DNA of 64,000 nucleotides. Source: Escherichia coli (GTDB lineage: Bacteria > Pseudomonadota > Gammaproteobacteria > Enterobacterales > Enterobacteriaceae). This document shows positions 21,884-33,072 of the stretch, one piece after another. The translations under genes were made by a program, and so were the position numbers. The DNA is taken from NCBI RefSeq assembly GCF_029227855.1, contig NZ_CP074356.1. One strand, written 5' to 3'. The first letter of the stretch is position 1; each line of letters begins with the position of its first letter. The notes under the pieces are model-generated. The model made no database searches, had not been told where the DNA came from, and saw nothing but the letters and a program-made list of their open reading frames with translations.

Positions 21884-22144
21884 GGTCCAGCCAGAAGAGT
21901 AAGAGAAAGCACTATTTTACGTGTTACAGCGCTGCGACAATGGCCGAAAAAGACGCCTGGCAGGCGCTATTTCTTGCCATCTGTAGGTGTCAGAAATGGG
22001 GGGCTGCTTTTTGATTATCATTTTTATAACATTAAAGGGGTATTTATGTGATTTGCATCACATAAAGATTGATTTTTGTGATGGTTGTCATATTATAAGT
22101 GCAAAGACAATAACACCTGTATAACAAATGGTCGGAGTGCCGCG

Positions 22145-22231
22145 ATGAAACTGCGCAAAATCCTGAAAAGTATGTTCAATAACTATTGCAAGACGTTCAA
22201 AGACGTACCGCCAGGCAATATGTTCCGATAA
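22145..22231 (+). CDS. azuC: Small membrane protein AzuC (28 aa)
   Basis: atg aaa ctg cgc aaa atc ... ttc cga taa = MKLRKILKSMFNNYCKTFKDVPPGNMFR; followed immediately by a terminator; below ORF-track size cut-off. Confidence 0.8.
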   Translation: MKLRKILKSMFNNYCKTFKDVPPGNMFR

Positions 22232-26562: not shown

Positions 26563-29915
<3,353 letters not shown>

Positions 29916-29921
29916 GTGCGG

Positions 29922-30350
29922 TTAATCTCCCGTAAGTGGAACTAACAGCACATCGACCTCACTTGAGGCAATCACTCTTTTCGCCGAGCAGGATGCTCGC
30001 GAAAAGAAACTGTGATTGTGATTACCGCAAATCACCAAATCGAAATGATATTTGCGACAAACTTCCAGAATATGTTCGCTTAACTCACCGTAGGCAATAA
30101 ACGTCTTGTCAACGGGATACCCCGCATCCTGAATTAACTTATCAAGAAAGCTTTGCGTTTCTTCCTGCATCACGCTGCGTAAATCTTCAAGCATCGGCGC
30201 AGCTAATTGATTGTACATTTCCGGGTCGGACGCGAGAGTAATTAAACTGATGTGTCCCTTTACTGGCCTGGCGATAGATACCGCTTTTGCCAGCAGTTGC
30301 TGACTTTCCGGTGTAACCGCAACGGCGACAAGAATATTGCTATAGCTCAT
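29922..30350 (-). CDS. uspC: Universal stress protein C
   Basis: 142-aa UspA-family ORF convergent with otsA. Confidence 0.85.
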   Translation of the reverse strand: MSYSNILVAVAVTPESQQLLAKAVSIARPVKGHISLITLASDPEMYNQLAAPMLEDLRSVMQEETQSFLDKLIQDAGYPVDKTFIAYGELSEHILEVCRKYHFDLVICGNHNHSFFSRASCSAKRVIASSEVDVLLVPLTGD

Positions 30351-31130
30351 AACCTGTTCCTTATTCTGTGAACTTCAGGTGACATTAAAGCTTTACTCCT
30401 AATGGAGAAACGACGCAATCCCAACTCAGTCAAACAGGTAAATATTAGTCTGATTATTAGTAAAGACAATTAATCAATCACTCTCGGTGATCATATGATT
30501 TCAACTGTAATTATAAGAAAATAATGTACTGATTCTCCATGTTAAACAAGTGGTTAATATATGTAAAACATTTTATTAACATTAAGTTGATTGTTGCCTT
30601 TCTTTGTATTTAATTAGTTTGTTGTGCGGTAAGTATCTGTTTAAAAATAGCTTATCTGGTATTGCATTAAAGCAATTATTTATGGCAGATGATTATTTAC
30701 GGTGAGTTATTTTAACTGTGCGCAACATCCCATTTCGATTATTCCTGTTTCATTTTTGCTTGCTAGAGTCGCGAAAAACTTTTTAACAGATTGAAATACA
30801 CCCAAAACAAAAGTATGACTTATACATTTATGTTAAGTAATTGAGCGTTTTGTGTGATCTGTATCACACATTATTGAAAATCGCAGCCCCCCTCCGTTGT
30901 ATGTGAGTGTAGTGACGAGTAAAGTTGCGTCGATTTAGGAAAAATCTTAGATAAGTGTAAAAAACCCCTTCTATTTGTGAGGACTTATTAAATCCAAAAA
31001 AGGGGCTCTGCCTGTTGCAGCTTATCGCAACTATTCTAATGCTAATTATTTTTTACCGGGGCTTCCCGGCGACATCACGGGGTGCGGTGAGACCGCATAA
31101 AAATAAAGTTGGTTATTCTGGGTGGGAATA
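30351..31130 (+). promoter_or_regulatory. flhD: flhDC master-operon control region and long 5' leader
   Basis: 780-bp AT-rich intergenic region between divergent uspC and flhD; contains the CRP site; no IS element. Confidence 0.7.
30853..30868. promoter_or_regulatory. flhD: CRP binding site of the flhDC class 1 promoter
   Basis: TGTGA-tctgta-TCACA, exact match to the CRP half-sites, about 270 nt upstream of flhD ATG. Confidence 0.75.
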
Positions 31131-31481
31131 ATGCATACCTCCGAGTTGCTGAAACACATTTATGACATCAACTTGTCATATTTACTACTTGCACAGCGTC
31201 TGATTGTTCAGGACAAAGCGTCCGCAATGTTTCGTCTCGGCATAAATGAAGAAATGGCGACAACGTTAGCGGCACTGACTCTTCCGCAAATGGTTAAGCT
31301 GGCAGAAACCAATCAACTGGTTTGTCACTTTCGTTTTGACAGCCACCAGACGATTACTCAGTTGACGCAAGATTCCCGCGTTGACGATCTCCAGCAAATT
31401 CATACCGGCATCATGCTCTCAACACGCTTGCTGAATGATGTTAATCAGCCTGAAGAAGCGCTGCGCAAGAAAAGGGCCTGA
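31131..31481 (+). CDS. flhD: Flagellar master regulator FlhD
   Basis: 116 aa from [17 protein letters not shown]; track ORF starts 3 codons earlier at GTG. Confidence 0.85.
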
Positions 31482-31483
31482 TC

Positions 31484-32062
31484 ATGAGTGAAAAAAGCAT
31501 TGTTCAGGAAGCGCGGGATATTCAGCTGGCAATGGAATTGATCACCCTTGGCGCTCGTTTGCAGATGCTGGAAAGCGAAACACAGTTAAGTCGCGGACGC
31601 CTGATAAAACTCTATAAAGAACTGCGCGGAAGCCCACCGCCGAAAGGCATGCTGCCATTCTCAACCGACTGGTTTATGACCTGGGAACAAAACGTTCATG
31701 CTTCGATGTTCTGTAACGCATGGCAGTTTTTACTGAAAACCGGCTTGTGTAATGGCGTCGATGCGGTGATCAAAGCCTACCGTTTATACCTTGAACAGTG
31801 CCCGCAAGCAGAAGAAGGACCGCTGCTGGCATTAACCCGTGCCTGGACATTGGTGCGGTTTGTTGAAAGTGGATTACTGCAACTTTCCAGCTGCAACTGC
31901 TGCGGCGGCAATTTTATTACCCACGCTCACCAGCCTGTTGGCAGCTTTGCCTGCAGCTTATGTCAGCCGCCATCCCGGGCAGTAAAAAGACGTAAACTTT
32001 CCCAGAATCCTGCCGATATTATCCCACAACTGCTGGATGAACAGAGAGTACAGGCTGTTTAA
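31484..32062 (+). CDS. flhC: Flagellar master regulator FlhC
   Basis: 192-aa ORF with zinc-binding Cys cluster. Confidence 0.9.
31993..32019 (+). promoter_or_regulatory. motA: sigma28 promoter of motA-motB-cheA-cheW, embedded in the 3' end of flhC
   Basis: TAAACTTT-N11-GCCGATAT inside the flhC coding sequence. Confidence 0.65.
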
Positions 32063-32120
32063 CTGATACGGTGTGGCGCAACATTCCAGCAGCGGTAACG
32101 ACGTACCGCTGCTTTTTTTT
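32026..32120 (+). ncRNA. motR: MotR sRNA (motA 5' UTR-derived)
   Basis: Transcript from the sigma28 promoter above to the hairpin agcagcggta-acgacg-taccgctgct plus T8 gives about 95 nt, the reported MotR size; boundaries approximate. Confidence 0.5.
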
Positions 32121-32188
32121 GCCCCAATCGCGCGTTAACGCCTGACGACTGAACATCCTGTCATGGTCAACAGTGGAAGGATGATGTC

Positions 32189-33072
32189 GTGCTTATCTTA
32201 TTAGGTTACCTGGTTGTTCTCGGTACAGTTTTCGGCGGTTATTTGATGACCGGTGGAAGCCTTGGAGCACTCTATCAACCCGCTGAACTGGTGATTATTG
32301 CCGGTGCAGGGATTGGGTCGTTTATCGTCGGCAATAATGGCAAAGCGATTAAAGGCACGCTGAAGGCGCTGCCGTTGCTGTTTCGTCGCTCCAAATATAC
32401 CAAAGCAATGTATATGGATCTGCTGGCTCTGCTTTATCGGTTGATGGCGAAATCGCGGCAGATGGGGATGTTTTCGCTGGAACGTGATATTGAAAATCCC
32501 CGTGAGAGCGAGATCTTCGCCAGCTACCCACGCATCCTTGCGGATAGCGTCATGCTTGATTTTATCGTCGATTATCTGCGTCTGATTATCAGCGGTCACA
32601 TGAACACCTTCGAAATCGAAGCCCTGATGGATGAAGAGATTGAGACGCACGAAAGCGAAGCAGAAGTCCCGGCGAACAGTCTGGCGCTGGTCGGGGACTC
32701 ACTTCCGGCGTTTGGTATTGTCGCGGCTGTGATGGGGGTCGTTCACGCGTTAGGTTCAGCCGATCGTCCTGCCGCCGAGCTGGGGGCGCTTATCGCACAT
32801 GCGATGGTGGGGACTTTCCTCGGTATTTTATTGGCTTACGGATTTATTTCCCCATTAGCGAGTGTTTTACGTCAGAAAAGCGCCGAAACCAGCAAAATGA
32901 TGCAGTGCGTCAAAGTCACACTGCTTTCTAATCTGAACGGTTACGCACCGCCTATCGCCGTTGAGTTTGGTCGCAAAACGCTCTATTCCAGCGAACGTCC
33001 GTCGTTTATTGAACTGGAAGAGCATGTGCGTGCGGTGAAAAATCCGCAACAACAGACGACAACCGAGGAAGC

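Follow-up and report, generated by a model that had tools for sequence, protein, structure and literature searches.

The uninterrupted flhDC control region of a natural Escherichia coli isolate compared with the insertion-activated and insertion-free alleles of K-12

Introduction

The region upstream of the flagellar master operon flhDC of E. coli is bound by the activator CRP and by the repressors H-NS, LrhA, OmpR, Fur, IHF, MatA, YjjQ and RcsAB (PMC5493358). It is also a target of insertion sequences. IS5 inserts recurrently at the TTAA that occupies -99 to -96 relative to the start site of flhD (PMC5100188; PMC1174868), IS5 insertions at -166 and -315 have been reported (PMC5100188), CTAG is a listed IS5 site (PMC5493358), and a motile MG1655 stock has IS5 at TTAG, about -311 to -319 (PMC1174868). 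The described K-12 alleles thus include IS-activated ones, with IS1H in MG1655 and IS5 at -99 to -96 in W3110, MC1000 or RP437-type strains, and IS-free ones, such as those of BW25113 and poorly motile MG1655 stocks.

Downstream of the start site, the flhD leader is the target of small RNAs. ArcZ pairs with positions -23 to -7 and -63 to -47, and McaS with -61 to -52 and -86 to -77, relative to the flhD ATG (PMC11331407). On the opposite strand, the antisense RNA AsflhD begins 22 nt into flhD and extends across the entire leader (PMC9600491; MG1655 annotation b4839).

Here, the corresponding region of a further E. coli genome is compared with these alleles and with the complete genomes of the species. 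The window referred to below is the whole 64-kb stretch of DNA that was analysed, and its features are listed in Table 1.

Results and discussion

Organisation of the uspC-flhD locus

The open reading frames of the window, together with the annotation of colinear genomes, give the gene order araFGH, otsBA, uspC, flhD, flhC, followed by motAB and cheAW. The ATG of uspC on the minus strand ends at 30350 and that of flhD starts at 31131. The intergenic region between them therefore measures 780 bp, exactly the length given for the flhDC control region in the original prediction, and has a GC content of 34.7%. With uspC and flhD as divergent flanks and flhC, motAB and cheAW downstream, the gene context is that of the flhDC control region. 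Homology to the K-12 region extends over the full length, and the 780-bp sequence matches 5,421 of 5,426 genomes, with a median of one place per genome. UspC differs from its K-12 counterpart in three residues. A homologue of the MotR small RNA (b4828 in MG1655) spans the 3' end of flhC and the flhC-motA spacer at approximately 32026-32120 and differs from K-12 by one substitution at 32074 (G in place of A).

Table 1. Features of the flhDC control region and its flanking genes in the window. Numbers with a sign are relative to the flhD start site at 30932 unless otherwise indicated.
Feature	Coordinates	Strand	Remarks
uspC (universal stress protein C)	29922..30350	-	Divergent neighbour; 142-aa ORF; annotated uspC in colinear genomes
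uspC-flhD intergenic region, flhDC class I control region	30351..31130	+	Colinear with K-12 once IS elements are taken out
AT-rich upstream zone (about -476 to -96)	30456..30836		Range of reported activating IS insertions; unoccupied; PMC5100188
IS5 target TTAG (about -318 to -315)	30614..30617		Intact; read from sequence
IS5 target CTAG (-169 to -166)	30763..30766		Intact; read from sequence
CATTTATG, duplicated around IS1H in MG1655	30825..30832		Single copy, empty in the window (alignment)
IS5 hot-spot target TTAA (-99 to -96)	30833..30836		Intact; occupied by a 1195-bp IS5 in W3110; PMC5100188
CRP site TGTGATCTGTATCACA	30853..30868		Centred at -71.5 (class I position) relative to the start site transferred from K-12
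Inferred -35 hexamer TTGTAT	30897..30902	+	3/6 consensus matches; placed via 17-bp spacing to -10
Inferred -10 hexamer TAAAGT	30920..30925	+	Position inferred relative to the transferred start site
flhD 5' leader	30932..31130	+	199 nt; start site transferred from K-12
Antisense RNA AsflhD, by homology	30932..31152	-	MG1655 annotation b4839; PMC9600491
Variable leader stretch (+31 to +83)	30962..31014	+	12/15 variable leader columns among 8 alleles; includes the private 30962 G-to-A
Distal sRNA pairing block	31045..31084	+	McaS -86 to -77 and -61 to -52, ArcZ -63 to -47 (from ATG); identical to K-12
Proximal ArcZ pairing site (-23 to -7 from ATG)	31108..31124	+	Overlaps ribosome-binding region; identical to K-12
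flhD	31131..31481	+	116 aa, intact; FlhD 100% identical to K-12
flhC	31484..32062	+	192 aa, intact; FlhC 100% identical to K-12

An intergenic region of 780 bp is unusually long, and four promoter-like sites were found on its minus strand; both features might be taken as signs of an unannotated small gene, a structured RNA or the scar of an IS element concealed in the interval. Such a hidden element is hardly credible. The four minus-strand sites correspond to the chance level (3.5 +/- 1.8 in shuffled sequence), and a search of Rfam over 29000-33000 returned no match at E<=1. The sole ORF of at least 40 aa is a 40-aa TTG ORF overlapping the uspC start, and PGAP annotates no feature within the homologues of 30351-31130 across the 5,421 matching genomes. 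IS termini and long inverted repeats are absent from the region, and the antisense RNA AsflhD is already counted among its features.

Insertion hot spot and its occupancy

The original prediction described the region as free of IS elements and as a hot spot of IS1/IS5 insertion that is occupied by IS1 in MG1655. Both statements agree with the alignments. MG1655 aligns in two blocks, positions 1-482 and 475-780 of the region, with the 768-bp IS1H lying between two copies of CATTTATG. W3110 aligns in blocks 1-487 and 483-780, which flank its IS5 at TTAA. After removal of IS1H or IS5, the alignment with either strain runs from end to end and the sequences are colinear. The hot spot itself is documented in published work as well (PMC5100188; PMC1174868). 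No IS1 terminal repeat (up to 3 mismatches) and no IS5 terminal repeat (up to 2 mismatches) occurs anywhere in the 64-kb window, and the inverted repeats detected within the region are short and imperfect, none resembling IS ends.

The IS-activated alleles thus share with the window the sequence around the insertion points and the targets themselves; however, they carry an IS, whereas in the window the IS1 target at 30825-30832 and the IS5 targets at 30614-30617, 30763-30766 and 30833-30836 are all empty and in single copy. An IS element with a target-site duplication at about -96 to -476, as in an IS-activated flhDC allele, is absent from the window. Upstream of the CRP site, A and T strongly predominate, the GC content being 24-27% over 30450-30700 and 28% between -500 and -100.

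The uninterrupted state is common in the species. The segment from -500 to -1, used as a query, matched 5,419 complete genomes in 5,583 places, and in 5,328 genomes a single place accounted for 80% or more of the query. As judged by the place counts (two places in 164 genomes, no single place reaching 80% coverage in 91), approximately 164 genomes (3%) are estimated to have the segment divided by more than 750 bp of inserted DNA, and approximately 97% of the 5,419 to be uninterrupted. The lowest-ranked example genomes break at query positions 400-408, which are the IS1/IS5 sites of K-12. Laboratory stocks of K-12 are not alone in having the region interrupted by IS elements: in the natural isolate O55:H7 DEC5B, the uspC-proximal part of the sequence upstream of flhDC has given way to an IS3-family transposase.

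Start site and promoter

The start site was transferred from K-12 to the G at 30932. The assignment was cross-checked against the published position of the IS5 target, since the TTAA at -99 to -96 then falls on 30833-30836, which is also the position of IS5 in W3110. With +1 at 30932, the centre of the CRP palindrome is located at -71.5 and the leader is 199 nt long. The leader of roughly 200 nt anticipated in the original prediction is thereby given a more exact length. Given the transferred start site, the CRP site has the spacing of class I CRP promoters, in which a 22-bp site with a TGTGA-N6-TCACA core is centred near -61.5, -71.5, -82.5 or -92.5.

The predicted -10 hexamer TAAAGT is common to the window and to strains CFSAN018748 and JNEC-KY178, whereas TACAGT is found in K-12 and in the five further alleles sampled. 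A consensus promoter and terminator scan, which is blind to weak activator-dependent promoters, gave no match on the flhD (plus) strand. The weak hexamers and the empty plus-strand scan fit an activator-dependent promoter. Dependence of this allele on cAMP-CRP would be carried over from K-12 by homology.

The CRP site

The sequence TGTGATCTGTATCACA, read at 30853-30868, is an exact TGTGA-N6-TCACA palindrome, and the perfect CRP site of the original prediction is thus present at precisely the expected place. Two sites of this form occur in the 64 kb, as compared with 0.02 expected from shuffled sequence. The second, TGTGATTTGCATCACA, at 22047-22062, precedes azuC (22145-22231), a small-protein gene that is presumably CRP-regulated, by approximately 85-100 bp.

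The right half-site is TCACA in the window and TCACG in K-12. A closer match to the CRP consensus would be expected to give tighter binding of CRP, and the comparison with the imperfect K-12 half-site could therefore be read to mean that the consensus site is an up-mutation for motility that sets the strain apart and confers stronger cAMP-CRP activation than in the wild type. A survey of genomes with a 35-mer covering the CRP site (270 exact matches, 4,237 genomes with one mismatch and 880 with two) makes this very improbable. All three one-mismatch genomes sampled (DEC5B, SF-468 and MRE162) have TGTGATCTGCATCACA, in which both half-sites are perfect, and those of ABU 83972 are likewise perfect. 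From these counts and samples, both CRP half-sites appear to be perfect in approximately 84% of genomes; K-12, with its TCACG, is the exception and has a minority form. The only lineage-specific base in the site of the window is the spacer T, found in approximately 5% of genomes, and spacer bases lie outside the half-sites. Hence the perfect half-sites, like the absence of IS elements, are the norm of the species and do not distinguish this strain.

The flhD leader

The leader of the window is longer than that of K-12 by one base (199 and 198 nt, respectively), which the alignment places at 30993. By identity with the K-12 sequence, it contains the sites at which ArcZ and McaS have been mapped to pair, and the AsflhD promoter, which lies within nucleotides 1-69 of flhD, is unchanged from K-12. 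The GGA motifs at 30938-30940 and 30981-30983 are presumably CsrA sites, and the sequence at about +5 to +18 resembles an RcsAB box.

Among the eight alleles compared, the part of the leader carrying the sRNA sites and the ribosome-binding site is nearly invariant, unlike the stretch from +31 to +83, in which the window has CCCCUU/AAGGGG and K-12 has CCAUUU/AGGUGG. Compensatory change within this cluster was considered and rejected, as RNAalifold analysis of the eight alleles revealed no pair (0) changed on both sides. The change at +31 that is private to the window (see below) breaks one base pair of the predicted leader fold. Folding of the leader of the window and of that of K-12 gave z values of about -1, and neither is stabler than shuffled sequence.

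Divergence from K-12 and from the nearest alleles

After removal of the IS, the K-12 region comprises 779 bp and differs from the window by 35 substitutions and one indel (approximately 95.5% identity); the divergence is 4.5% in the intergenic region as compared with 1.1% in flhDC. The IS-free K-12 allele matches the window in the flanking genes, the IS targets, the CRP position, the sRNA sites, the AsflhD promoter and the FlhD and FlhC proteins, but differs in the CRP right half-site, the CRP spacer (C in K-12, T in the window), the third base of the predicted -10 hexamer (C in K-12, A in the window) and the +31 to +83 cluster. Since the 35 differences include the -10 third base, the +31 to +83 cluster and the private change at +31, the quantitative output of flhDC may differ from that of K-12.

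The IS-free alleles of SF-468, ABU 83972, MRE162, 504838 and CFSAN018748 are 778-780 bp long and colinear with the window. No complete genome is identical to it over the 780 bp, the best match being 99.7%. The nearest complete genome is that of JNEC-KY178, a clinical isolate from Japan, with 8 SNPs and one 1-nt indel over 64 kb. JNEC-KY178 and the group of CFSAN018748 and porcine O139:H1 strains are 99.6-99.7% identical to the window over the 780 bp and share its T-spacer CRP site, its TAAAGT hexamer and its leader haplotype. JNEC-KY178 differs from the window within the region at 30360, 30541 and 30962, and CFSAN018748 at 30635 and 30962, the A at 30962 being unique to the window.

Over the 24 kb from 20000 to 44000, the CFSAN018748 and porcine O139:H1 group shows 98.9% identity to the window, and over the intergenic region 99.4-99.7%. 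Most E. coli are only approximately 95-96% identical to the window over the intergenic region. The pattern of shared alleles suggests that the flhDC control region may exist as distinct haplotypes common to several lineages, as in a recombination mosaic. Outside the region, at approximately 62260 and just 5' of yobI, a gene for a small stress protein, an A run differs by one base between the window and JNEC-KY178; the difference may be genuine or an error in sequencing the homopolymer.

Three of the eight SNPs that separate the window from JNEC-KY178 (30360, 30541 and 30962) fall within the 780 bp, for which the binomial P is 1e-4 at a uniform rate of change and 6e-3 at a four-fold faster rate. 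The G-to-A change at 30962 (+31 in the leader) is private to the window, with its 34-mer found in none of 5,384 complete E. coli genomes (0/5,384). At 30360 it is JNEC-KY178 that has the derived base, and the Shine-Dalgarno sequence of its uspC is weaker as a result. Position 30541 is G in the window and CFSAN018748, and A in JNEC-KY178 and the other strains sampled.

This clustering, the private leader change and the effect on the uspC Shine-Dalgarno sequence would be expected if point mutations were under ongoing selection here, with regulatory SNPs rather than IS elements tuning the expression of flhDC and uspC. We regard this as unlikely. The counts are tiny, and the three changes are divided between two lineages; AT-rich intergenic DNA evolves faster in any case, as the comparison with flhDC given above indicates; and the leader shows no compensatory pattern. 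A short recombination patch or base-calling errors would also explain the changes, and that at 30962 extends a run of A. Recurrent point-mutational tuning of the flhDC/uspC control region in natural lineages, with the three SNPs and the private +31 change adaptive, is likewise an unlikely proposal. Weaker constraint, recombination in a patch or errors of sequencing could each account for the SNP cluster and the variability of the leader, which hint but faintly at selection.

Conclusions

The region upstream of flhD in the window is most probably (a probability of about 0.93) the native, uninterrupted control region of the flagellar master operon in a natural E. coli isolate. The original prediction had further called flhDC expression wild-type and tightly regulated. 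As regards the architecture, the description wild-type is borne out by the absence of IS elements, the colinearity with K-12 and the intact FlhD and FlhC, whereas tight regulation is what such an architecture would lead one to expect.

By homology with K-12, from which the start site, the promoter hexamers and the protein and sRNA binding in this strain are carried over, transcription would begin at 30932 from a weak sigma-70 promoter, TTGTAT-17-TAAAGT, that depends on the binding of cAMP-CRP at the -71.5 palindrome, a class I activation position. The complete 400-500 bp of AT-rich DNA upstream would provide the platform on which H-NS and the other repressors hold the operon low. In laboratory strains this repression would be broken by IS1 or IS5 inserted between about -96 and -476, and no such insertion is present here. 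The 199-nt leader has the pairing sites mapped for ArcZ and McaS and would be covered by the antisense RNA AsflhD, all of them unchanged from K-12. From the start site, CRP dependence and repression so transferred, we infer that motility would probably be low and condition-dependent.

An IS-free flhDC control region has been described before and is what the species carries by default, and the significance of the finding is accordingly limited, adding little beyond correct annotation. It serves as a corrective to the use of K-12 as the reference, for the IS insertions and the imperfect TCACG half-site are particular to K-12 and to the laboratory strains derived from it. The genome examined here carries the ancestral IS-free flhDC region together with an intact master regulator, and its motility should follow normal control by CRP, H-NS and small RNAs.
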